64,000 bases of DNA from Opitutaceae bacterium (GTDB lineage Bacteria; Verrucomicrobiota; Verrucomicrobiia; Opitutales; Opitutaceae), in assembly GCA_035485575.1 (NCBI GenBank), contig DATHNW010000008.1, forward strand, positions 18,894-82,893, written 5' to 3'. Both the position numbers and the translations under genes were made by a program. The notes beneath the pieces are model-generated. The model was not told the DNA's origin and made no database searches. It saw nothing but the letters and a program-made list of their open reading frames with translations. Shown here in pieces: positions 1,661 to 51,805 of this stretch (the first letter of the stretch is position 1; every line of letters starts with the position of its first letter).

Positions 1661-2968
1661 ATGCCCACGACCGAACTGGCGGATTATGCCGCCGTGCAGG
1701 ATTATCTTTTAAGCCTGAAGGCCAGCGGGCCGAAGTTCGGGCTCGACCGCATGCGGGGGTTTGTCGAAGCGCTGGGACATCCCGAGCGCGCCGTGCCGTT
1801 GATCCATGTCGCGGGGACAAACGGCAAAGGCTCGGTCGCCGCCATGCTCGATGCGATTTTCCAAGCCGCGGGCTGGCGCACCGGCCTCTACACTTCGCCG
1901 CATCTTGTGCGGCTGGGCGAACGCGTGCAGGTGAGCCGCCAGATCCTCAGCGAGACGGAGATCACCGCCTACACGCGCGAACTGCGTCCGGTGGCCGAGC
2001 GCTTGGGGCGCTTTGATCCGACAGACCAGCCGAGTTTTTTCGAATTCATGACCGCGATGGCATTTTTGCAGTTTGCCCGGCGGCACTGTGATATTGGCTT
2101 CATCGAGGTCGGCCTGGGCGGAAGACTTGACGCGACCAACGTCGTGCAGCCCGAGGTCGCGGTCATCACCTCCATCGGCCTGGATCACTGCGAAATTCTC
2201 GGCGACACGCTTGAGCAAATCGCCGCGGAAAAAGCCGGTATCATCAAGCCCGGCCGGCCGGTCGTGCTTGGCCGCATGCCCGTGGCCGCGGAAAACGTCA
2301 TCCGGCGCATTGCCGGCGAGCGCACCGCCGGTGTGGTGTCGGTGGCGGAGATTTTTGGCGACAACCTCGATCGTTGCCCGGACACGAACCTCGAAGGCGA
2401 TTATCAACGCTGGAATGCGGCCACGGCCCTGTTGGTGGCGCGGACGCTGCCGGTCGCCTGGCGGCTGACGGAGGATGTCGTCGCGCAAGGACTGCGGCAG
2501 GTCAACTGGCCCGGCCGCTGGCAGCGCGTGCGCCTGGCCGATGGCCGGCTGCTCGTGCTGGATGCCTCGCACAATGCCGAAGGCACGCAGGCGCTTGATG
2601 CCAATTTGACCAGGCTCGCGGCCGAGACCGGCCGCCGGCCGGTCGTCATCGCCGGCGCGCTCGGCGTTACCAGGGCGGAACCGCTGATCGGGACGATCTG
2701 TCGCTACGCGCGCGAAATTCATTTCGTGGTGCCAAACCAGTCGCGCGCCTGTTCATTTGCCGAGCTCGAGACATTTGTGCCGGCGACTTTTGCCGGCCGC
2801 ACCCACCGGGCCACTGTGGCGGGGCTGTTTCCGGCGGCCGACCGCTGTGCTGTGGGTCAGGCGGATGACGTGATCGTCGTGACCGGCTCGATTTACCTGC
2901 TGGGGGAGGTGCTGGCCTGCCTCGAACCGCAGCGCGGTGCCGGCGAGGGCCGGCTGCAGGATTTTTAG
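1661..2968 (+). CDS. folC: bifunctional folylpolyglutamate synthase/dihydrofolate synthase
   Basis: 435 aa. Mur-ligase P-loop VAGTNGKGS followed by TSPHLVRLGERV. It sits directly downstream of accD. Confidence 0.9.
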   Translation: MPTTELADYAAVQDYLLSLKASGPKFGLDRMRGFVEALGHPERAVPLIHVAGTNGKGSVAAMLDAIFQAAGWRTGLYTSPHLVRLGERVQVSRQILSETEITAYTRELRPVAERLGRFDPTDQPSFFEFMTAMAFLQFARRHCDIGFIEVGLGGRLDATNVVQPEVAVITSIGLDHCEILGDTLEQIAAEKAGIIKPGRPVVLGRMPVAAENVIRRIAGERTAGVVSVAEIFGDNLDRCPDTNLEGDYQRWNAATALLVARTLPVAWRLTEDVVAQGLRQVNWPGRWQRVRLADGRLLVLDASHNAEGTQALDANLTRLAAETGRRPVVIAGALGVTRAEPLIGTICRYAREIHFVVPNQSRACSFAELETFVPATFAGRTHRATVAGLFPAADRCAVGQADDVIVVTGSIYLLGEVLACLEPQRGAGEGRLQDF

Positions 2969-2972
2969 CTGC

Positions 2973-3704
2973 TTACGGAGCCGATTCCAGAAGCTTGCCC
3001 AGGTAATTCATCGGGCGATCTGGACCGACATACTGGCCGTTCACATAGCTATCGGCGACAACTTGGCCTCTTGCATCAAGCACCACGAGGCACGGAATTC
3101 CCGGGCCGGCGTAGTTCCTGATGTCCTGCAGGTTTTTGATCTCTGCAAATCGCAGGGCCGGCCAGGGCATGGAAAGCTCGCGCATGTAGCCGAGCATTTC
3201 GCGCTCGTTGCGGTCATCGCTGACGAAAACAATTTCGAAGTTGTCGTGGCGCGGCTTCATCTGCCGATAGAAATCGACCAGTCTTGGTGTGAAGCGGTGG
3301 CAAGGCCCGCACCAACCGGCCGAGAAATAAAGAGCGATGTAATCAGGCGTGCCCGTCGGCACATAATCGGCAAAACCGGTTTCTGCCGGCATGACGAGCT
3401 TGTCCCATAACAGATTGACAATGGGCGAATAAGGCTTCTTGGCGGGTGCAACAGTTGCAACAACCGATGAGTTGTTGCGTTCGCACTCTTTGATGAAAGC
3501 CCGATCTTCTGCAGAGAGCGAGGCCAGGGCGCATTTCACCTGGCTGCCGTCCGGCTTGTGCAAAAAGACGATGTCTCCCATCGAGCCGCCAAATTCGGCT
3601 TCAAGCTTTGTTTTTCCGTCGATGGTCCACTCATGCGCCCGCGTGAGACAGGCATTCCAAAGCAACACGGTGCAAATGATAAGCTTTTGGGAGGCTTTTT
3701 TCAT
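2973..3704 (-). CDS. secreted thioredoxin-fold (nucleoredoxin/TlpA-like) protein with an N-terminal SHD1-like domain
   Basis: 243 aa with a signal-like N-terminus. Contains the thioredoxin motif FSAGWCGPCHRFTP. The N-terminal WT..GK..EAEF......V.L....G......L..LS..D..FI pattern resembles an SLA1-homology (SHD1) domain. Confidence 0.6.
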   Translation of the reverse strand: MKKASQKLIICTVLLWNACLTRAHEWTIDGKTKLEAEFGGSMGDIVFLHKPDGSQVKCALASLSAEDRAFIKECERNNSSVVATVAPAKKPYSPIVNLLWDKLVMPAETGFADYVPTGTPDYIALYFSAGWCGPCHRFTPRLVDFYRQMKPRHDNFEIVFVSDDRNEREMLGYMRELSMPWPALRFAEIKNLQDIRNYAGPGIPCLVVLDARGQVVADSYVNGQYVGPDRPMNYLGKLLESAP

Positions 3705-3730
3705 GCCTCCAGGCTAATTTAGGGAGGACT

Positions 3731-5275
3731 TTACGCCAGCTTAACCAGATCCATGGAGACAGGAATATCCTTGATGATTTGCGACGGCTGCGGGCCGACG
3801 CCGAGGTAGCGCAAATTTGGCAGTGCAGCCGCGGCTGGCCACGGTTCGCCGGCATAGGCGACCGCGAGCAGGCTTTTCATCATGGCGGCGACATAACGCT
3901 GGGCGGCGCGCGGCAGGTCGGCAAAGCGTCGCACCTGCGAGACGTCCTCAGCCCAGCCGGGAAATTTTTCATAGACCGGCCGCAGGACCTTGCGCACGGC
4001 CTCGTTGCGCGGCACGTGGGTGTGACGGCGGCCGGAGGCGTCCTCGTAGGCGGTGCAGATTTGCAGCTCGCCGCGCCATTCGCCGCCATGCGTGAGCGCA
4101 TCGAGCTTGTTGATCATCAGGTCCTGGAAGCCGCCGTAGCGAAGCGCATCGCCTTTCTCGACGGCATCGTACCAGCCGACCATGCGCTGGCGGCCGGTGC
4201 TGGTGCCGAACTCGAGCTGTTTCAACTTGGCGCAGAGCGGGTGGGCGTCGTCCATCTGCGTGAGGAAGGTGTGCGTGCCGACCTTGGTGTCGTAGGCCTT
4301 GGCCACGCCGAAGGTGTGCACGGGCTGCACGGGCAGGCCGGCGCTCTCGAAAAGCTCGGGCGTGTAGGTGTGCGAGGCCGTGACGTTGGGGGAGAAGCCG
4401 TGGCGCTTGTCGAGCCAGTAGGCCTGGCCGAACTCGCCGATGACGGTGCGGCCGGCGGCAAGCTCCGTGCGGACGATCTCACGCACTTCACCGATATTTT
4501 TCGCGAGGGCGACGCCCGCCTGCCAGTAGACCTCGGTGAGACGGTCAAGGTTGAGGGTGAAAGGCGCGGGGCCACGGAATTGCGCGAAGTCGAACTCGGC
4601 CGGGGCGAACACCCCGAGCTCAATGGCCTCGGCGTTGGCCCGCTGCTCGGCGGCGGTGAGCTTGTCGAAAAACTGATGCCAGGCGGCTTCGCTGACGCGG
4701 CAGACGTGCTGAATGGTGCGCAGGGCGCGATCGGCGCGCTGGGCCAGCTTGCGGGCGAAGTAATTCGGCCCGCCAAGAAAATCGGAGAAACAAACCTGCC
4801 ACTGGCCGACTTCGTCGAGATAGGCGGGCGTGATGCCGCGGCCGGTCGAGCCGCGCGCCTCTTCGCAGAGGATGTTGACGCGGTAGTCCTCCCATGCGAG
4901 ATCGAGCAGCCGGTGCGTGAGGTCGGACACAAGCGTGCGCTCATCGATGCGCAGGCGCGAAACGACGGCGTGGCCCTTCTTTTCGAGCGGCCGCGTTTCC
5001 CACCAGATCTTGCGCGGGTCGGCGACGACGCCGGCGCCGAGGCAGAGATAGGGCACGCCGGCTTCAACGACACCGGCGGGGAGGAGGTTGAGCTTGAGTC
5101 CGCCGGCGGTGTGGCCGGAGTTGGCTCCGCCGTTGACCTTGAGCACGACGGAGACCGGCGCACGGGTGGCGCGAAGCTCATCCACGATTTCGGGGATGAG
5201 ACGGCCTTTGCCTTCGTCACCGAGTGAGATGCCGACATCGGCGATGAGCCGGCTGGAAAAGGGGATCAGGGACAT
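3731..5275 (-). CDS. adenylosuccinate synthetase-like protein (long, divergent form)
   Basis: 514 aa. PurA-type motifs are present: GDEGKG P-loop, [23 protein letters not shown] and NKLD. It is about 80 aa longer than canonical PurA. The motif reads GGANSGHT where canonical PurA has GGHNAGHT. Confidence 0.75.
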
Positions 5276-5374
5276 GGTTCCTTGGCGGCAACCGGAGCGA
5301 AGCCCCTGTTGCCGACAAGGGAAAACGCGACCACGGGGCGGAGTGCAAACAAAAATATTGGCAGAGGCGAAGGA

Positions 5375-8074: not shown

Positions 8075-9652
8075 TTATTCTTTTCGTGTGGAGACTTCGA
8101 TTACATCATGGGGCGCAGCTTCCTTCTGGCCGGCGGCGCTGACCCGAACGTAGCGGGCCCGGGCCTGGAGTTCTCCCAGATTTTTTGCCCCGAGGTAGCC
8201 CATGCCGCTTTGCACGCCGCCGATTAGTTCGGCGAGAACGGTGTCAATGGAGCCGGAGACTTCCTTGAGCGCTTCGATGCCCTCGGCGGTGAGTTTGCGC
8301 GAGGAGTCGGCCTTGTCCTGGCCGTAGCGGGCAGCACTGCCGGCCTTCATGGCGGCGAGCGAGCCCATGCCGCGGTATTGTTTGTAGAGCTTGCCGTTGA
8401 TTTCGAGAATCTCGCCCGGAGCCTCACGACAGCCGGCGAAAAGGCCGCCGCAGATGACGGCGTCGGCGAGGGTGAGGGCCTTGACGATGTCGCCGCTCTT
8501 GGTGATGCCGCCGTCGGCGAGAAGGCGGACCCCGCGTGCGGCGGCGGCCTTGCTGGCGACGTAGAGGGCGGTGAGCTGCGGGATGCCCACGCCGGCGATC
8601 ATGCGCGTGGTGCAGATGGAGCCGGGGCCCTGGCCGACTTTGATGGCGTTGGCGCCACAGTCGGCGAGAAACTCGACGCCGGCGGCACTGGTGACATTGC
8701 CGGCGATGATGGTGAGATGGGGAAAGGCGCCGCGCACGAGGCGCACCATGTCGCCGACGCCGGCGGTATGGCCGTGCGCGGTGGAGACCGCGATGGCATC
8801 GATGTTTTCCTCCACAAGATGGCCGACGTGGGAAAGGATCTTGTCGCGGTCGAGTTCGCCGGAGGCCTTGCGCGCGGGCGAGATCGCGGCGCCGACGACG
8901 AGGCGGAATTGCGCATCGCGGGCGGGCTTGCGGCGGGACTTGGCCTCACTGGTGAGGCGCTCGACATCGGAGCTGGTGACGAGGCCGCGCAGGCGGTCGT
9001 CGTCATCGACGACGAGGATTTTGTGCAGTCCGACGTGGTCGGTGAAAAAGGCGTCCGCCACCTTGATAGGATCGCCGGACATTTTTTTCGCGGACACGGT
9101 CATGAGCTGCGCGCGGGGCGTCATGACGTCGGCGACTTTTTTCGCCCGGTAGCGTTCCTTGACGAGATTGCCCGACAGCAGGCCGGCGAGCTTGCCGCCC
9201 TTGGTCACGACGGGGAAGGTGCGGAACTCGAATTTGCGCTGTTCGATCATCGCGAGCACATCGCTGATGAACAGCTCGGGCTCGACCGTGATGGGGTCCT
9301 GGATGAGACCATGGATATGATGCTTCACCCGGGCGACCTCCTGCACCTGGTCGGCCGGGGACATGTTGTAATGGATGAGGCCGAGGCCGCCGTTCAACGC
9401 CATGGCGATGGCCATGCGTGACTCGGTGACGGTGTCCATGTCGGACGAAAGGATGGGAATCTGCAGGCGCAGGCTCTCGCTGAGCTGGGTGGAGAGGTCG
9501 GCGTCGCGCGGCAGGATCTCCGAATGGAGCGTGGCGAGGGAGACATCGTCGAAGGTGAGCGCGGTCGGGCGCGCGGCGGTAAAAAAGGCGTCGGCGGGCA
9601 GATAAAAACCAGTGTCGACGCTCGAAGCGGAAGTCGTGGCAACCTTAGTCAT
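8075..9652 (-). CDS. guaB: IMP dehydrogenase (with CBS pair)
   Basis: Motifs LTFDDV, the catalytic loop GPGSICTTR and GGI..SGDI. The ORF was trimmed from 9793 to the ATG at 9652 (MTKVATT...). Confidence 0.9.
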
Positions 9653-19113: not shown

Positions 19114-21075
19114 ATGACCACTTCCGAAAAAATTTCCGCGGCGGCGCGCTCCGGCCAGATTCTGCCGGGTACGGCCGAAAATCTTGCCGCCTGGCTCGGC
19201 TCCGGACTGCCGGCCTGGGCGGTGGCCGGCATTGACGAACTGGTTGCGCAAAGTGCGTGGAGCGAGCTTAACGACCGGTTTTACCGCTACCTCGAGTTCG
19301 GCACCGGCGGCATGCGCGGGCGTACCATCGGCGCGGTCGCAGCCCAAAGCGAACTCGGCACGCCCGGTCCGGAGGGCACGCCGGAGCATGCCGCCATCGG
19401 CAGCAACATGCTCAATGATTTCACGCTCATCCGCGCGATCATCGGGCTTTACCGCTACACGAAGAAATTTCTCGGGCAGAACCTGCGCTTCGATGTGCCG
19501 CGGCTCGTCATCGCCTATGACGTGAGGCATTTCTCGCGGCATTTCTGCGAGCTGGCCGCCTCGACGTGGACGCGGCTGGGCGGGGTGGCCTTCATCTTCG
19601 ACGGGCCGCGCTCGACGCCGCAATTGAGCTTCTCCGTGCGCTGGCTCAGGGTCCACGCGGGCGCGGTCATCACGGCCAGCCACAATCCTCCGCATGACAA
19701 CGGCTTCAAGGCTTATTTCGAGGATGGCGGCCAGGTCGTGCCGCCGCATGACAAGGGCATCATCGCCGAGGTCAACGCCGTGCAACTCGGCGAGCTGGGC
19801 GCGTTTCTTGAGAAGGATCTGGCGCGCGTGGTCATCTTGAAGCGTCCGGCCGACGACGCCTATCTCGTGGCCGCCTCGCGTTCGATCATCGATCACCGGG
19901 TTTTCCCCAAGGCAAACCTGAAGGTGATCTATTCCAACATCCACGGCACCGGCAGCGTGGCGGCGACGCCGCTCCTGCTGCATGCCCGTGTGGATGTGGT
20001 CGAGGTGATCGAGCAGGTCGCCTTCGATCCGCGTTTTCCGACCGTGAAGTCGCCCAACCCGGAGAACGCGGAGGCGCTCGCGCTGGCCATCGCCACGGCG
20101 GAAAAGCGCAGTTGCGACATCGTGTTTGCCACCGATCCCGACGCCGACCGCATGGGCGCGGCGGTGCGCGGCCGCGACGGCAAAATGGTCATCCTGACGG
20201 GCAACCAGATCGGCGCGCTGCTGGCCGAGTATCGCATCACCCGCTACAAGGAGCTGGGCTGGCTGCCCGCGGAAGGCACGCAACGGGCGGTGCTGATCAA
20301 GACCTTTGTCACCACGCCGTTGCAGGACGCCATTGCCCGCGGCCACGGCCTCAAGGTCATCAACACGCTCACGGGTTTCAAGTGGATCGCGGCCCGGCTG
20401 CACCGCTACGAGGAGGAGATGATGGAGGCCCTCCGCACGAAGGAGCACCTTGCGCTCGACTACGACGCCACGCCCGCGCGCAAGCGGGCCGAGCTGATGC
20501 AGGCGCACAGCACGTTTTTCGTGCTCGGCGACGAGGAAAGCCTCGGCTACCTCGGCACCGACGCGATCCGCGACAAGGACGGCAACGCGGCCTGCCTGAT
20601 GTTTGCCGAGGTGTGCGCCGCCCTGAAGCTGCGCGGGGTCACCGTCCCGGAATATCTCGACGAATTGTATTTAAAATACGGATACCATCTCGAGGACACG
20701 ATCAACATCTATTACGAGGGCGCGAGCGGCGCGGAGAAGATCAAGCGCATCCTCGGGACGTACCGGGAGCAGCCGCCGGCCGCGTTTGGCGACGTGCAGG
20801 TGGCCAGGTTCCAGGACTTCGGCCGCGAAAAAATCACGGATGCGGACGGTGCGACCGTGCCGGCGCAGGACCTGTATTTCGTGACGCTGGCCAACGGCTA
20901 CAGCTTTGCCGCGCGCGGCAGCGGCACGGAGCCGAAGATGAAATTCTACCTCTTTGCGAACGAACGGGTCGGAGCCGTGGCAGACCTGCCGGCGGCGAAG
21001 GCCCGGGTCGCGCAGACGCTTGGCGCGTTGAAGAAGCTTATCGAGCAGGACGCGAAGCGCCGCGCGGAAGGCTGA
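19114..21075 (+). CDS. phospho-sugar mutase (phosphoglucomutase/phosphomannomutase family)
   Basis: 653 aa from the ATG at 19114. Active-site loop TASHNPPHDNGFK, metal loop DPDADR, and GEES/GSGTEP near the C-terminus. Confidence 0.88.
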   Translation: MTTSEKISAAARSGQILPGTAENLAAWLGSGLPAWAVAGIDELVAQSAWSELNDRFYRYLEFGTGGMRGRTIGAVAAQSELGTPGPEGTPEHAAIGSNMLNDFTLIRAIIGLYRYTKKFLGQNLRFDVPRLVIAYDVRHFSRHFCELAASTWTRLGGVAFIFDGPRSTPQLSFSVRWLRVHAGAVITASHNPPHDNGFKAYFEDGGQVVPPHDKGIIAEVNAVQLGELGAFLEKDLARVVILKRPADDAYLVAASRSIIDHRVFPKANLKVIYSNIHGTGSVAATPLLLHARVDVVEVIEQVAFDPRFPTVKSPNPENAEALALAIATAEKRSCDIVFATDPDADRMGAAVRGRDGKMVILTGNQIGALLAEYRITRYKELGWLPAEGTQRAVLIKTFVTTPLQDAIARGHGLKVINTLTGFKWIAARLHRYEEEMMEALRTKEHLALDYDATPARKRAELMQAHSTFFVLGDEESLGYLGTDAIRDKDGNAACLMFAEVCAALKLRGVTVPEYLDELYLKYGYHLEDTINIYYEGASGAEKIKRILGTYREQPPAAFGDVQVARFQDFGREKITDADGATVPAQDLYFVTLANGYSFAARGSGTEPKMKFYLFANERVGAVADLPAAKARVAQTLGALKKLIEQDAKRRAEG

Positions 21076-44780: not shown

Positions 44781-45884
44781 ATGAGCGAATTGAAACGCAC
44801 GCCCCTGTACGCCTTCCACGTGGCGCACGGCGGGCGCATGGTGGACTTCGCCGGCTGGGAGATGCCGGTGCAGTACAAGAGCATCCTCGGCGAGCATCTC
44901 GCGGTGCGCCGCGCGGCCGGCCTTTTCGACGTCAGCCACATGGGCGAGGCCGATGTGCGCGGACCGGAAGCGGCCCAGTTCCTGAACCACGTGGTCACAA
45001 ACGACGTCGCCCGGCTCTTCCCCGGCCGCGTGCTCTACACGCCGGTGTGCTACCCCGACGGCGGGGTGGTGGACGACCTGCTCGTTTACATGCGCGGACC
45101 GGAGGATTTTTTCCTCTGCTTCAACGCCGGTAACATCGACAAGGATCTCGCCTGGCTGCGCGAGCAGGCGGCGAAGTTCAATGTCACGGTCACCGACCGC
45201 TCGGCCGATTACGCGCTCCTCGCGCTGCAAGGCCCGCGTGCCGCCGCCATTCTCTCGCCGCTCACGGCGACGAAGCTCGACACGATCAAATACTATCACT
45301 TTGCCGAGGGCACGGTTGCCGGCGTGAAGTGCATCATCAGCCGCACCGGTTACACGGGCGAGGACGGCTTCGAACTTTATCATGCGCCGGGCGAGGCGGA
45401 AAAGCTCGCCACCGCGCTGCTGGCCGCCGGCACGCCGCTGGGTCTCGAACTGGTCGGCCTGGGCGCGCGCGACAGCCTGCGCCTAGAGGCGGGTTATCCG
45501 CTTTACGGCCATGAAATCACGGCCGACATCTCGCCGCTCACCGCCGGCCTGGGCTGGACGGTGAAACTCGACAAGGGCGCCGACTTCATCGGTCGCGGGG
45601 CGCTGCTGGCCGAAAAGGAAACCGGCACGCCGCGCAAGGTCGTGTTTTTCAAGACGGGAGACCGCCGCATCGTGCGCGCCGACACCCCCGTGCTCGGGCC
45701 GGCCGGCGCGGTCGTGGGCAAGGTCGTCTCCGGCACGCTTTCGCCCGTGCTCAACGAGGCCATTGGCTCGGCCCTTGTTGAAACCACCGCCGCCGCCGAA
45801 CCGCTCGCAGTGGACATCCGCGGCGTGAAGCTCGATTTGCGTCTGGCCAAGCCTCCATTCGTCGAACTAAAGAAAACCACATGA
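44781..45884 (+). CDS. gcvT: glycine cleavage system aminomethyltransferase T
   Basis: 367 aa from [11 protein letters not shown]...G..MV.F.GW.MP.QY. Contains DVSHMG. Confidence 0.92.
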
Positions 45885-46264
45885 GCAACGTTCCTGCCGA
45901 TCTCCGCTACGCGAAGTCCCACGAATGGCTGAAGCCTGCGGGCGACGGCACCGCGACCGTCGGCATCACCGACTACGCGCAAAACTCGCTCGGCGACATC
46001 ACCTACGTGCAATTGCCGAAGGTCGGCGCGACCTTTGCCGCCGGCGCGGTCTTTGGCGTGGTCGAGAGCGTGAAAGCGGCGAGCGATCTTTATGCGCCCG
46101 CGGCCGGCACGGTCACGGCGGTGAACGACGCGCTCAACAACGCGCCCGAGACGGTCAACCAGTCGCCCTACGATAGCGGCTGGATTTTGAAACTGAAGCT
46201 GGCCAACCCCGCCGAAGCGAATGCGCTACTTTCACCGGCCGACTACGAAAAGGTGATTGGGTGA
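45881..46264 (+). CDS. gcvH: glycine cleavage system H protein
   Basis: 127 aa. Motifs Y...HEW and the lipoyl-lysine motif ESVKAASD. ATGA overlap with gcvT. Confidence 0.93.
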   Translation: MSNVPADLRYAKSHEWLKPAGDGTATVGITDYAQNSLGDITYVQLPKVGATFAAGAVFGVVESVKAASDLYAPAAGTVTAVNDALNNAPETVNQSPYDSGWILKLKLANPAEANALLSPADYEKVIG

Positions 46265-46389
46265 AATTTCGACATGCGTGGTCTTGAAGTCGTGAAGTTC
46301 GAGCAACTCGACGACGACGGTCACCTTTTCAAGATCGCCCTCGATAATCTTTTTTCGCTCGACACCGTTCGCTTCACTCAAGGCTTGGC

Positions 46390-47934
46390 ATGAGCGGCAA
46401 GATAACGACGGGACATGGGCTGAACGCTGATGAAGTCTTCCTCGGTTTAGTCGATTTCGGACTATTCAGTGAAAAGATGCCTGCCTGCTTTTCTGCGGAG
46501 GGATTGGCAAAACTGGTCCCCGCAAGTCTGGCGAAGATCAGCACTGAGACTGACCTTTCCAAACTTAAAAAACTGATCGCCAAACAAACCCACGGAGTCA
46601 TCCGCTATCAAGTTCTACGCGACGTAAATATCCCCCGCCAGATGGGAATTCCACATCCGCAGAGCCATCTCGCACAGTGCCTCGCCATCAAGCGTTGCTG
46701 GAGTGAGATCAAGAAGCACTGTGCCAAACCGACCGCGCCGGTAAGTCGAATCTTCGTGCGGGACACGGGTGCAGATCGTGTCTTCGAGATGAATTACAAA
46801 GGGGCAGAGCGCCTCGAAGTCGAAGAGCAGGAACTCGGTTTCCTCACCGGCGCGACCTACGTGGTTCACGCGGATATCGCCGCTTGTTTCCCGAGCATCT
46901 ACACCCATTCTATCCCATGGGCCTTGCATGGCAGAAAATTAGCCAAGCAGGCACGCGACGATCTCTCTCTGGCGGGTAACTTGCTCGACAAAGCCACTCA
47001 AGTAGTCCGTGACGCGCAAACCAACGGCCTGCTCATTGGCCCACACGCGTCCAACATCATTGCGGAAATTGTCCTGACATGTGTGGACGCGCATCTGTTA
47101 AAGAAAAGCTATATCCGGCTCAGCCGTCACATCGACGATTACCGCTACTACGCCCGCACACACGAGGAGGCGGAGAACTTTATTCGCGACCTCGGGCTCG
47201 GCCTTCGGGAATTCGAGTTGGCCCTGAACGAGCGAAAGACGAAAATTCTGCCCCTGCCTCGCCCGCAGACGGAGAATTGGGTGCGTGAGTTAACGACATT
47301 TCAATTTCCTGACGGATTGATTCGACATTCTACGGTGAGGTCCTTTCTGGATCTCGCTCTTCACTTAGCCCAAGAGTCGGGAACATCGGCCGTTCTTAAT
47401 TACGCAATAAAGATGATCCCAGCCCGTCTTAATGACCGGGCTAAACGCCTTTTTTCCCTTGAGGCGATGAATCTCGCACTTGCATACCCTTATCTCGCGC
47501 CGTTGCTCGGTGAGCATGTATTCGCGAAGCACACTCATGTTGGAATGGAAAAGGTAATCGCGACTTTTGCCGATGAACTCCTGCGAATCGGCATCCGTCG
47601 CATCTATCCGGATGCAATTGCCCACGCGCTTTACTATGCCATTAAATACGATACAACCCTCTCGCAGTCCGAGGCTAAACTTCGAGAGATCGTGATGATC
47701 GACGATGGCATCTGCCACGTATTGCTCCTCGAGTATGCCAACCGACGGAAGCTCGCTGCGATTCAGAAGGCCGTCACAACTCGCGCTAACAATCTCAAAG
47801 GCCTCGATTCCAGAGAGCAGGACCCATTTTGGCTTCTGCTCTATCAGGTATGGACCGAAGCTGATCTTTGCGGCAATGGCCACGAATTGCTGGCCGAGCT
47901 TAAAGCAAAATATTTCACGTTCTTGCGATTTTGA
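46390..47934 (+). CDS. reverse transcriptase, UG/Abi (defence-associated) class, with a C-terminal alpha-helical repeat domain
   Basis: 514 aa. RT motifs: 1/2 RYQVLRDVNIPRQMGIPHP (aa 72-90); A VVHADIAACFPSIYTHSIPW (Asp162); B LLIGPHASNIIAEIVL (aa 214-229); C RHIDDYRYY (aa 246-254, nt 47128-47139 = HIDD); E LNERKTKIL. About 210 aa of helical C-terminus follow. There is no maturase/HNH domain, no retron VTG motif and no DGR accessory genes. Confidence 0.85.
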   Translation: MSGKITTGHGLNADEVFLGLVDFGLFSEKMPACFSAEGLAKLVPASLAKISTETDLSKLKKLIAKQTHGVIRYQVLRDVNIPRQMGIPHPQSHLAQCLAIKRCWSEIKKHCAKPTAPVSRIFVRDTGADRVFEMNYKGAERLEVEEQELGFLTGATYVVHADIAACFPSIYTHSIPWALHGRKLAKQARDDLSLAGNLLDKATQVVRDAQTNGLLIGPHASNIIAEIVLTCVDAHLLKKSYIRLSRHIDDYRYYARTHEEAENFIRDLGLGLREFELALNERKTKILPLPRPQTENWVRELTTFQFPDGLIRHSTVRSFLDLALHLAQESGTSAVLNYAIKMIPARLNDRAKRLFSLEAMNLALAYPYLAPLLGEHVFAKHTHVGMEKVIATFADELLRIGIRRIYPDAIAHALYYAIKYDTTLSQSEAKLREIVMIDDGICHVLLLEYANRRKLAAIQKAVTTRANNLKGLDSREQDPFWLLLYQVWTEADLCGNGHELLAELKAKYFTFLRF

Positions 47935-47991
47935 TAGCGCTTCGATTTTCGCACGGTAAACTACCAATGCTCTCAGCGTGAAATGAGCCTA

Positions 47992-48078
47992 GCATAACCA
48001 ATCGCCCGATCCAACGTGAATAGGCCTGGGCCGTTATTGCCGCGCTTGTCCTCGCGTGGGGCATCTCTAACGTTCGGC
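47992..48078 (+). repeat. attC-like imperfect palindromic repeat, copy 1 (87 nt)
   Basis: GCATAAC ... GTTCGGC ends, 5/7 complementary. Inner helix AT(C)GCCC / GGGCAT with one bulged base. It shares the 3' core GCTTGTCCTCGCGTGGGGCATCTCTAACGTTCGGC with the other copies. Confidence 0.5.
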
Positions 48079-48088
48079 AAATCACCCG

Positions 48089-48499
48089 ATGCAAATCGAC
48101 GAACTCACCCTTGTTTTGCTCGGAGCCTTCTGGACCGGTACGACGGCGGTTTTTACCGGCATGCAGATGGCCGATGCCGCGCGCGACCGCATCATGCTGG
48201 CCAAAGCTGACGATGTTCATCTGCCTCCCGACTATCGGCGGCACTTGCTCTGGTATACGTGGGTTCCCTTGCGCGTCTCTCTCGCCAGCGTATCGCTCCT
48301 GCTTGGCGTCATCATCGTCTTTCTGCCGAAGCTCGCCACGGAAGCGGGCACCACGTCCCGACCTACTTTCGCCGCCATCTGCCTTTGGTCTGCTTTCATT
48401 CCATTTTCCGGCGCGGCTCTCTTCTTCATCACTTCCTTCCTCGAATTCTTCACGATGAAATCTCGTATCCATGATGCAGGGCGAAAGAATAAGACCTAA
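48089..48499 (+). CDS. hypothetical small membrane protein (3-4 TM)
   Basis: 136 aa with an ATG start. Hydrophobic helices at about aa 6-25, 52-78 and 93-125. I recognise no family. Same strand as the RT and 154 nt downstream of it. Confidence 0.55.
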   Translation: MQIDELTLVLLGAFWTGTTAVFTGMQMADAARDRIMLAKADDVHLPPDYRRHLLWYTWVPLRVSLASVSLLLGVIIVFLPKLATEAGTTSRPTFAAICLWSAFIPFSGAALFFITSFLEFFTMKSRIHDAGRKNKT

Positions 48500-48598
48500 C
48501 CAATTGCCCGAGTCACGAGTCATTTTCGCCCATTTGGCGAGCTCAGGGCTTAGGCCATGCTTGTCGCCCGTGTGAGTCGGCTCTAACTAGCGTTGGGC
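48494..48598 (+). repeat. attC-like imperfect palindromic repeat, copy 2 (105 nt)
   Basis: ACCTAAC fits RYYYAAC exactly and overlaps the stop codon. GTTGGGC fits GTTRRRY exactly. The inner 9-bp helix CCGAGTCAC/GTGAGTCGG has one mismatch. Confidence 0.55.
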
Positions 48599-48610
48599 CC
48601 AACCAATCCC

Positions 48611-48907
48611 ATGAATACCAAAGCGAAATTGAGAGACTATCTGCGACGGGCGAGATCCGACGTCTCCTTAAGAAGCAGACTATTGGGCGATGCACGATTT
48701 ATGAAGAAAACCTCTGGCTGGATGGCGATAGTGTGGATATTGTTGCTTTTGGCACAGACCGCATTCGAAGGGCAGCCATGGTTTTCGAGCTCTTCCGCCA
48801 CAGCGTGGCTCGGCCTTATGTTTGCGGTAATGCTATTCGACAAATTTTCGGATCGGGTTGCGATGATGGAGTCAATGGAAGAGCCGACGAATCAACCATC
48901 AGTTTGA
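48611..48907 (+). CDS. hypothetical small membrane protein (2 TM)
   Basis: 98 aa from the ATG at 48611 (the track start 48593 is a TTG). Basic N-terminus, two TM helices and an acidic tail. Confidence 0.5.
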   Translation: MNTKAKLRDYLRRARSDVSLRSRLLGDARFMKKTSGWMAIVWILLLLAQTAFEGQPWFSSSSATAWLGLMFAVMLFDKFSDRVAMMESMEEPTNQPSV

Positions 48908-48957
48908 GGCCGATCCGACTACGCTTATGCTGCAGAGGTCATCTCTAACGTTCAGCC
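48908..48957 (+). repeat. attC-like repeat, copy 3 (short/degenerate, ~50 nt)
   Basis: GGCCGATC ... GTTCAGCC ends, 6/8 complementary. It has the same ATCTCTAACGTTCAGCC core as copy 1. Confidence 0.4.
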
Positions 48958-48979
48958 AATAATCCACCCAGGAGGAAGC

Positions 48980-49387
48980 ATGGCCGCCGTTTTTGAAAAA
49001 CTGAATCTCAAGGGACAGACCGAGATTCTCGTGGTCAATGCGCCGCCGTCCTTTGAAGCCGAATTGGCCAGACTTGAAGGGGTCACCGTGGTTCGCGACC
49101 CAAAGAAGGCAAAGGCGGTTCATTTTGCCCTGGCGTTCGCTACCAAGCAGGCCGAAGTCGACGCTTTCTCGAAGACGCTCGCGGGCAAAGCTGAAGGCGA
49201 TGCCGTGCTCTGGTTTGCTTATCCGAAAGGCACATCCAAGAAATACAAATGTGAGTTTAACCGCGATTCCGGATGGAAAGTGATTCGTGGCCTTGGCTTC
49301 GACTCGGTGCGCCAGGTTGCGATTGATGAAGATTGGTCCGCGCTGAGATTCAGGCGCGTAGAGTACATTAAGTCATCCGGGAAATGA
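48980..49387 (+). CDS. DUF3052-like small cytoplasmic protein
   Basis: 135 aa. Strong AGGAGG Shine-Dalgarno at 48970-48975. The pattern ..ILVVNAP..F......D.VLWFAYPKG.S.......RD.GW.....G...V..VAIDEDWSALRF resembles DUF3052 (assignment from memory). Confidence 0.6.
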   Translation: MAAVFEKLNLKGQTEILVVNAPPSFEAELARLEGVTVVRDPKKAKAVHFALAFATKQAEVDAFSKTLAGKAEGDAVLWFAYPKGTSKKYKCEFNRDSGWKVIRGLGFDSVRQVAIDEDWSALRFRRVEYIKSSGK

Positions 49388-49404
49388 GGCCGAATCAGCC
49401 GCCG

Positions 49405-49473
49405 ACCTAACGCTGCACCGGTTGGAATCGTTTGGCCACGCTTGTCCTTGCCTGGGTCCGCCCTACGTTAGCC
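49405..49473 (+). repeat. attC-like imperfect palindromic repeat, copy 4 (69 nt)
   Basis: ACCTAAC (exact RYYYAAC) ... GTTAGCC. CTAACG/CGTTAG pair. Contains the shared core CGCTTGTCCTTGCCTGGG. Confidence 0.5.
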
Positions 49474-49478
49474 CAGAC

Positions 49479-49943
49479 ATGAACCTCACCGATGAACTTC
49501 GTAAGCTCGCCGAACTTCACCAGGAAGGTAATCTCAGCGACCAGGAATTCGCCGACGCGAAGCGGCGGTTGATCGCTGAGAGCGACGCCGAGCCGTCCGC
49601 TGCCACGCCGCAGGAAGAAAACGCGGCCTCCGAGGGAGCCGTCGAAGTCGACGAGAAGAAGTACCGGTCCAGCCGCTGGTCGTCTGGCAATTTCTTTTTT
49701 CCGGATACTTTGACGCTATCGAGCGACGGCATGTTGTTCCGCAAGGGCGCGATGTTCGGCTCCAGTGAGGAGCACATCAATTACCGGGCGGTGGCTTCAT
49801 TCCGGGTCAAGAATGGCATCTTCCTGTCGAATCTCTGCATCGAAACCTCCGGCGGCAGCCAGCCGATTTTCATCAATGGGCTGTGGAAATCCGAGGCCAG
49901 GGAGATTCAGGACGCGATTCGCGCATTCCAAAGAAACTGCTGA
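49479..49943 (+). CDS. SHOCT-domain protein with a C-terminal bacterial-PH-like domain
   Basis: 154 aa from the ATG at 49479. The N-terminal LRKLAELHQEGNLSDQEFADAKRRLI is a SHOCT motif. The C-terminal roughly 90 aa are beta-rich and PH-like (FFFPD.L.L..DG..F.K......E...NY..V..F.V..G). Confidence 0.6.
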   Translation: MNLTDELRKLAELHQEGNLSDQEFADAKRRLIAESDAEPSAATPQEENAASEGAVEVDEKKYRSSRWSSGNFFFPDTLTLSSDGMLFRKGAMFGSSEEHINYRAVASFRVKNGIFLSNLCIETSGGSQPIFINGLWKSEAREIQDAIRAFQRNC

Positions 49944-49954
49944 TCGGCGACCGA

Positions 49955-49971
49955 AGCCAACGCGGTTTAGC
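49955..49971 (+). repeat. possible collapsed remnant of the same repeat at the island's right edge
   Basis: AGCCAAC-GCG-GTTTAGC, located just before the typA stop codon (49988-49990). Confidence 0.25.
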
Positions 49972-49987
49972 TGCTTGGGCCGGGCAC

Positions 49988-51805
<1,818 letters not shown>

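Follow-up and report, generated by a model that had tools for sequence, protein, structure and literature searches.

A probable integron cassette cluster without an integrase, including a DRT4 reverse transcriptase gene, in an Opitutaceae genome

The island between gcvH and typA

We studied a 64-kb stretch of the chromosome of Opitutaceae bacterium (Verrucomicrobiota; contig DATHNW010000008.1 of assembly GCA_035485575.1, positions 18,894 to 82,893), which we call the window. Within it, an island at approximately 46270-49985 separates the genes gcvH and typA and holds five co-oriented genes: a reverse transcriptase (RT) gene of the DRT4 type, two small membrane-like open reading frames (ORFs), ORF4 and ORF5. 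The GC content is 50-56% in the island and 63-67% in its flanks, and the drop from about 65% to 50-56% occurs directly after gcvH. A sequence-only reading of this DNA had suggested that imperfect palindromes resembling integron attC sites follow every gene of the island, which might thus be a group of clustered attC sites that has no integron integrase (CALIN). The evidence presented below makes it very probable that the island is such an integron cassette cluster without an integrase, and that its sites come from an attC family specific to Opitutaceae.

The left flank of the island is the host core gene gcvH (45881-46264, forward strand), an ORF with the Pfam domain GCV_H. The right flank is a second host core gene, typA or bipA (49988-51805, reverse strand), which is recognizable from its Pfam domains and from homologues named TypA. 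The genes of the island itself are on the forward strand. The first gene of the array (46390-47934) encodes an RT of 514 amino acids, which is assigned to the defense-associated DRT4 (UG28) group by its matches to PADLOC Drt4 and Pfam RVT_1. In the ORF list, it is followed by ORF2 (48089-48499), encoding a predicted membrane protein of 136 amino acids, and by ORF3 (48611-48907), whose product of about 98 amino acids is membrane-like. For ORF2, the only Pfam match, SUR7 (E=0.027), falls short of the curated cut-off and is not significant, and no PADLOC family matches. ORF3 matches neither a Pfam nor a PADLOC family. ORF4 (48980-49387, 135 amino acids) belongs to a very widespread family of small proteins with homologues across phyla and no Pfam domain. 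The last gene, ORF5 (49479-49943, 154 amino acids), exhibits hints of a SHOCT and a bacterial PH domain, both below the curated Pfam cut-offs (SHOCT at E=8e-5 with 22.7 vs. 27 bits, and bPH_3 at E=7e-4 with 20.4 vs. 23 bits). A SHOCT cassette is also present in another array, L043.

An attC family in Opitutaceae and an adjoining integrase

Alignments and repeat families revealed related elements in all four spacers of the island, with a 5′ block and a 3′ block in common. The motifs of these elements are absent from the rest of the window. We searched for a 25-nt degenerate pattern, derived from the 3′ block, in 185,579 species genomes and in metagenomes. The matches in genomes comprise six DNA stretches on five contigs, all in three metagenome-assembled genomes (MAGs) of Opitutaceae/Opitutae, and those in metagenomes comprise 30 DNA stretches. 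Homologues of ORF4 also led to arrays of small co-oriented genes. On one of these contigs, L014, the element recurs between other genes, and stop codons lie inside its GCCTAAC.

A covariance model (R1) was built from 21 elements of 87 nt on other contigs and contains no window sequence. It matches 132 elements in other loci, 104 of them distinct. In every locus, the copies occupy only one strand and are located between small ORFs that are co-oriented with each other. The elements are 58-133 nt long, and their variation in length is confined to the terminal part. The model detects no elements in the loci of the RT homologues or in those of Undibacterium. One 28-kb contig, Ga0206975_1073 (loci L024, L033 and L043), has approximately 40 short members of the family (58-64 nt) and resembles a large sedentary integron that was captured without its integrase end.

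The family consensus is GCCKAAC CAGYC GCC A GACCCA (A) CGCG ... CGCG TGGGTC AKC TCTAAC GTTNGGC. Its ends correspond to R boxes of 7 bp, namely R″ (GCCKAAC) and R′ (GTTNGGC), in which AAC and GTT are nearly invariant. The consensus and the short members of 60 nt fold into an outer stem, an internal loop, a bulged inner stem and an end loop, with z-scores of -3.1 to -6.4. The same architecture (z = -4.9) was obtained with a control, the 60-nt attC site of aadA1. In the alignment used to assess covariation, 86.7% of cells are paired, and one pair occurs 50 times as C-G and 40 times as G-C. There are 147 cells changed on both sides, as compared to 64.8 in shuffles (0/500) and 18-35 with slid partners. 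This alignment was fitted to the model, which favors the structure. Despite this, the slid controls and the counts of changes on both sides indicate that the helix is real.

Numbering positions from the outer end of the R″ arm, we found unpaired spacers of 5 and 6 nt and a short L box. In the latter, positions 13-15 face positions 74-72, and the three pairs form in 77/77, 30/77 and 75/77 elements on the bottom strand, while the counts for the top strand are 71, 30 and 22. Of the 77 elements, 75 leave position 16 unpaired; positions 17-22 constitute a covarying stem of 6 bp, and position 23, which is an A in the top strand and a T in the bottom strand, is bulged in 76/77. The bottom strand is more stable by a mean of 1.69 kcal/mol (79 of 104 elements, p=7e-10); the corresponding strand difference in attC sites of mobile integrons is 2.12 kcal/mol (PMC5027507). 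Published attC sites have unpaired central spacers (UCS) of five to six bases and, separated by a 6-bp stem, an extrahelical base (EHB) at position 16 and a conserved T at position 23 or 24 (PMC5027507). The fold of the family matches this canon.

Sequences around the R boxes exhibit further regularities. Conservation extends roughly 12 nt upstream of R″ (gaaaAAAgaGCCKAAC), for example at positions 103-120 of L014, 1267-1290 of L040 and 47979-47991 of the window. Stop triplets appear at fixed offsets: 27% of copies have TGA at -10, and 38% have TAA inside R″. After R′ comes an A-rich leader, 3-13 nt in length, that lacks a Shine-Dalgarno sequence, and most copies in the family have an ATG at this distance from R′.

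Integron crossover occurs at G|TT and leads to chimeric sites within an array (Cury et al. 2016). Therefore, R″ should correspond to the R′ half-site with which its own cassette begins, and which is located in the upstream element. We evaluated this expectation using the four variable outer bases of R″ in 77 consecutive element pairs. All four bases can pair with the upstream R′ in 51/77 cases; the corresponding counts are 22/77 with the element's own R′ and 26/75 with the downstream R′, which served as a control. On average, 3.60 bases pair with the upstream R′, as opposed to 3.00 +/- 0.07 in permutations (0/10000).

An integrase adjoins one array of the family. Locus L032 has an ORF of 353 amino acids that scores 282 bits with the NCBIfam model for integron integrases, TIGR02249 (cut-off 265 bits). 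Its product is 37.5% identical over 320 residues to IntI1, and it retains the IntI-specific segment KYP..W.WFWVFP..DPR.G. The gene, found on a single contig, is oriented divergently from two cassettes with attC sites of this family. The junction of the first cassette reads ...ACATA|GTTCGGC, and the R″ of this cassette, GCCGAAC, is the exact complement of that half-site.

The elements are short, structured, lineage-specific and intergenic, and several small clusters of them occur on different contigs of a single MAG (L016, L018 and L020). In these respects, and in the poor folding of the window copies discussed below, they could be interpreted as REP-like (repetitive extragenic palindromic) or MITE-like (miniature inverted-repeat transposable element) repeats that spread by some other route and merely resemble attC sites. 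However, such repeats would not be expected to lie on one strand in each locus, co-oriented with the ORFs, with R″ overlapping stop codons and an ATG 3-13 nt after R′ in most copies. Chimerism of the R boxes with the upstream neighbor, the integrase beside one array and the lack of copies elsewhere in the 64 kb also argue against them. We consider this explanation highly improbable and close to refuted already. The sequence-only reading had suggested that a repeat scattered in non-cassette contexts would speak against attC sites, and that R/L-box geometry should be conserved if they are genuine. The repeat proved to be limited to a single strand of small-ORF arrays and, among genomes, to Opitutaceae/Opitutae MAGs, while the geometry is present across the family, together with covariation. 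The search of relatives that it recommended, for further copies and for intI, led to the 132 elements and to the L032 integrase beside an array of the same family.

A second alternative is that the elements are expression signals instead of recombination sites, with the 5′ block acting as a terminator and the 3′ block as a promoter or 5′ leader that is repeated. The 3′ half does contain TTGATT or TTGTCC, then 16-17 nt, then TAACGT, and the A-rich leader of 3-13 nt precedes the ATG. Moreover, the unpaired spacers are unusually conserved in sequence. Against this, only 3/6 positions of TAACGT agree with the -10 consensus, the hairpin is not followed by a T-run, and a scan for promoters and terminators found nothing on the forward strand of the island and few matches overall, no more than expected by chance. 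Expression signals would also leave unexplained why the stem covaries, why position 23 is bulged, why the R boxes are chimeric and why an integrase is located nearby, and a promoter inside an attC site would add to its role in recombination, not replace it. We therefore regard it as very unlikely that the elements are expression signals alone. The 3′ half of the attC site at 48045-48074 of the window resembles a weak sigma-70 promoter directed toward the next cassette, although it is below the threshold of the scan. It is a possibility that attC sites also drive the expression of cassettes.

Eroded sites and changing cassettes beside typA

The model, which was built without window sequence, detects four elements in the window, all of them in the island. 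Thus, the prediction of a related element in every spacer was borne out, with the elements confined to the island. A weak match at 20131-20214 (15.2 bits) corresponds to GC-rich coding sequence, and was taken as chance.

The best-preserved site is c1 (47992-48078; 87 nt, 63.9 bits, E=1.3e-15), with R″ GCATAAC and R′ GTTCGGC. It is nearly intact, as its mismatches are restricted to two R-box pairs and one stem pair. Next is c4 (49389-49473; 30.9 bits, E=3.3e-6), with R″ GCCGAAT and R′ GTTAGCC. In c4, AAT replaces AAC in R″, and each spacer has lost 1 nt. It is homologous to the attC site that follows the ORF4 homologue in L014. Site c3 (48886-48956; 18.0 bits, E=0.017, or E=0.001 when the island alone is searched) begins within the end of ORF3, and a deletion has removed approximately 15 nt from its 5′ stem arm. 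Site c2 (48494-48598; 13.3 bits, E=0.36) is degenerate and was recognized by the similarity of its blocks, both of which match the family consensus on direct reading. Its R″ is ACCTAAC, which includes the stop codon TAA of ORF2, and its R′ is GTTGGGC. Its low score is explained by 4 nt (TAGC) inserted between the spacer and R′, before GTT. Finally, direct reading revealed a remnant, c5 (49944-49981; ..CGACCGAAGCCAACGCGG..), which ends in the terminal junction CTTGGGCC. All five are on the forward strand.

Several observations weigh against calling these elements attC sites. In the family as a whole, position 4 of R″ is a G in about half of sites and thereby deviates from RYYYAAC. In the window, c2 is a weak match to the model, reaching only 5.8 bits with filters turned off, and c5 goes undetected by it. 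Folded singly as single-stranded DNA, the window copies are no better than shuffled sequences (z-scores of +1.8 to -0.8), and their minimum-energy folds are not canonical. Complementarity between R″ and R′ is not visibly retained in the window array, whether R″ is compared with its own R′ or with the upstream one. The canonical fold is apparent at the level of the family only.

The attC sites of the window are eroded, and the array is best interpreted as old and mostly frozen. Sites c2, c3 and c5 are probably unable to recombine. Since the copies fold no better than shuffles, the earlier description of them as imperfect palindromes is weak for the window itself, and the claim that they form good hairpins did not hold. 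Some of the helices had also been assigned differently. In the fourth copy, the sequence ACCTAAC that had been taken for R″ in fact belongs to the inner stem, forming its 5′ half (family GACCCAAC), and the true R″ is GCCGAAT at 49389-49395. The helix AT(C)GCCC/GGGCAT proposed for the first copy is out of register with the family stem, GATCCA(A)CG / CGTGGGGC, whereas the helix proposed for the second copy is in register. The third copy, which had been noted as short, starts within the end of ORF3 (48886) and has a loss in its 5′ arm. The spacing of 5-23 nt between GTT and ATG in the window and the GTTCGCT sequence ahead of the RT (46367-46373) are as previously described.

No sequence resembling IntI was found in the 64-kb window by tblastn with IntI1 and the L032 integrase (E<=1), consistent with the earlier statement that no recombinase of this type is present. 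The island thus has four attC sites on one strand within 1.5 kb and no integron integrase nearby. It qualifies as a CALIN because the window lacks an IntI-like sequence and because the array is directly bordered by the core genes gcvH and typA. The proposal of an integrase-less cassette array therefore agrees with the family geometry, the chimeric R boxes, the L032 integrase and the lack of IntI in the window.

Comparisons with related arrays indicate that cassettes move as units, since ORF4 and its attC site recur together in L014. The similarity between the ORF4 cassette and its counterpart there begins with the leader after GTT, spans the ORF and reaches into the first half of the attC site, with approximately 85% nucleotide identity in the ORF as judged by eye. 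The genes on either side are unrelated, and homology ends at the ends of the cassette. A sister lineage, L054, has a typA gene that is 96.1% identical to that of the window in nucleotides and 99% identical in protein. Here, an ORF4 homologue is followed by six other small genes (RraB, DUF4272, Imm33 and others) and then by CTTGGGCC beside typA. This terminal junction is common to the window and L054, while the cassettes differ. With the same junction but other genes, array content at the typA site therefore varies between near relatives. The attC sites of L054 are worn to much the same extent as those of the window. The L054 cassettes at 2336-5187 (minus strand) include Imm33, an immunity-protein family, as well as RraB and DUF4272, which hints that the arrays carry cargo related to toxin immunity or defense.

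We also sought relatives with an empty gcvH-typA site and found none; relatives whose TypA is 93% identical have no gcvH within 7 kb. In these relatives (L051-L053), genes for TraG/TraC-like conjugation proteins are located after typA, from about position 8819 onward. In L054, a different cassette array is present there (2319-5353). In this lineage, foreign DNA seems to have a hot spot at the typA 3′ end.

Homologues of ORF4 with 75-89% identity occur in Verrucomicrobiota, Undibacterium (Betaproteobacteria), Gemmatimonadaceae and Tepidisphaerales. Judging from this distribution, ORF4 looks like a highly mobile small gene. Most of the homologues are on very short contigs (P0121-P0240; L011-L013). 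On the Undibacterium-like contig L013, a gene for an OLD-family nuclease (AAA_15 + TOPRIM; 474-2177) is directly upstream of the ORF4 homologue, and two complete genomes have another gene in its place.

If an integron of this lineage is active, the bottom strand of its attC sites would fold into a hairpin with a 7-bp R box, a 5/6-nt spacer, an L box, the unpaired T16, the 6-bp stem and the bulged T23, beyond which there would be a further stem and a variable end. The integrase would then cut between G and TT of R′, and cassettes would leave as circles and re-enter at attI. This scheme of cutting, excision and re-entry follows what is established for integrons, and it is consistent with the chimeric R boxes. 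The window array, with no integrase and no attI, would be largely frozen, and only c1, and perhaps c4, might still be used by an integrase supplied in trans. Because the array is co-oriented with gcvT-gcvH, read-through from these genes may express it.

The reverse transcriptase and the place of the array among integrons

The RT matches PADLOC Drt4 over its full length (residues 10-512, E=1.1e-142) and RVT_1 above the cut-off, with weaker matches to AbiK profiles, and it has a single-gene architecture. RTs in integrons are usually intron-encoded. An RT of a group IIC-attC intron was considered here and rejected, as a search of the window with Rfam, in which attC sites have no family, found nothing at threshold and the best profiles are DRT4, DRT6 and AbiK. 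The DRT4 RT would act as a stand-alone defense gene of the abortive-infection type. It most likely arrived as a large cassette, or else it may have been trapped at the head of the array.

The sequence-only reading had concluded that, if the array is genuine, the RT is itself a cassette. This idea is upheld downstream of the gene, where an attC site is present, and falters upstream. The left junction (46265-46389, forward strand) has no attC site, even when the covariance model is applied with filters turned off, and there is neither an attI-like sequence nor a complementary R′ half-site upstream of the RT. The GTTCGCT sequence in this junction, 16 nt before the RT start, is not complementary to GCATAAC, the R″ of c1. 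In addition, the closest RT homologues (70-75% identity) occur in ordinary defense islands with methyltransferase/helicase systems, no small ORFs and no attC, and never in cassette arrays. These points all count against the RT as a cassette. They could be accommodated if only the four small-gene units are cassettes and the RT was inserted at the head of the array in another way, by exchange between defense islands or by homologous recombination. Site c1 would then have belonged to an earlier cassette, and the 57 nt between the RT stop codon and the R″ of c1 indeed contain AAATGA, like the usual end of an ORF before R″. On the other hand, the RT is co-oriented with the array and shares the low GC content of the cassettes, the best-preserved attC site follows it, and the GTT box before its start is within the usual range of distances. 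On balance, we lean toward entry of the RT into the array as a cassette, and see its insertion by another route as a serious but lesser possibility.

The gap between gcvH and the RT is also occupied by an ORF of 39 amino acids (46274-46393; MRGLEVVKFEQLDDDGHLFKIALDNLFSLDTVRFTQGLA), whose overlap with the RT start is ATGA. It resembles none of the regions or genes upstream of the RT homologues, and we therefore rejected the notion that it is a remnant of a gene preceding them.

More tentatively, the RT and c1 might constitute a genuine cassette that can still be mobilized, and Opitutaceae might possess an active, undescribed branch of integrons that shuttles defense systems, an idea that we find somewhat less likely than not. 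If it is correct, this branch would have a lineage-specific attC family with extrahelical bases T16 and T23 and conserved spacer sequences, and both large single-gene defense systems and small genes would move between sites such as the 3′ end of typA.

CALINs are common, and loss of intI, rearrangement and insertion at secondary sites were proposed as their origins (2016, PMC4889954). Like those CALINs, the island contains a minimum of two attC sites that share an orientation, small co-oriented ORFs without promoters and no intI nearby, and its number of sites, about five, is typical. It differs in that its attC sites are more eroded than usual, such that they would probably score poorly singly, and in its host, a MAG of Verrucomicrobiota.

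The family as a whole resembles the homogeneous attC families of sedentary chromosomal integrons, for instance the VCR elements of Vibrio cholerae and the taxon-specific attC models of Ghaly et al. 2021 (PMC8352920), in that its attC sites are specific to a lineage and alike in sequence. Arrays here reach dozens of cassettes (L033/L043/L024, L015/L022). In both, the bottom strand is favored, and the sites share R and L boxes, a UCS, extrahelical bases and a variable end. In contrast to sedentary integrons, the Opitutaceae family has a T, not the usual G, as the inner extrahelical base (position 16), its UCS and the A-rich flank before R″ are conserved in sequence, and its R″ often deviates at position 4. 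Taxon-specific attC models are available for 11 taxa, and Verrucomicrobia are not among them (Ghaly et al. 2021, PMC8352920). Verrucomicrobia were noted in 2016 as carriers of integrons.

Anti-phage cassettes in integrons were described by Darracq et al. 2024 (10.1101/2024.07.02.601686) and Kieffer et al. (10.1101/2024.07.02.601719). As in those cases, a defense gene, here a predicted one, is found inside a cassette array. By contrast, the gene of the island encodes a 514-amino acid DRT4 RT; the terms "Reverse transcriptase", "DRT" and "retron" are absent from the main text of the Darracq preprint (10.1101/2024.07.02.601686). The RT resembles known DRT4/UG28 and AbiK-type RTs in its full-length match to PADLOC Drt4, its weaker AbiK matches and its encoding by a single gene, and differs from DRT4/UG28 RTs in its location in a cassette array; its closest homologues are located in defense islands.

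The island is therefore a known kind of element in a little-studied lineage, and what is new is the lineage-specific attC family and an integrase-less array with DRT4. These findings leave the understanding of integrons unchanged. Nonetheless, an integron array was recognized from sequence alone in a phylum whose integrons are barely described, and the DRT4 RT joins the defense genes found in cassette arrays. Opitutaceae now have a well-defined attC family, for which the evidence includes covariation, a linked integrase and 104 distinct sites. With it, cassettes in soil and peat metagenomes could be assigned to the lineage, as is done for the 11 taxa that have been modeled.

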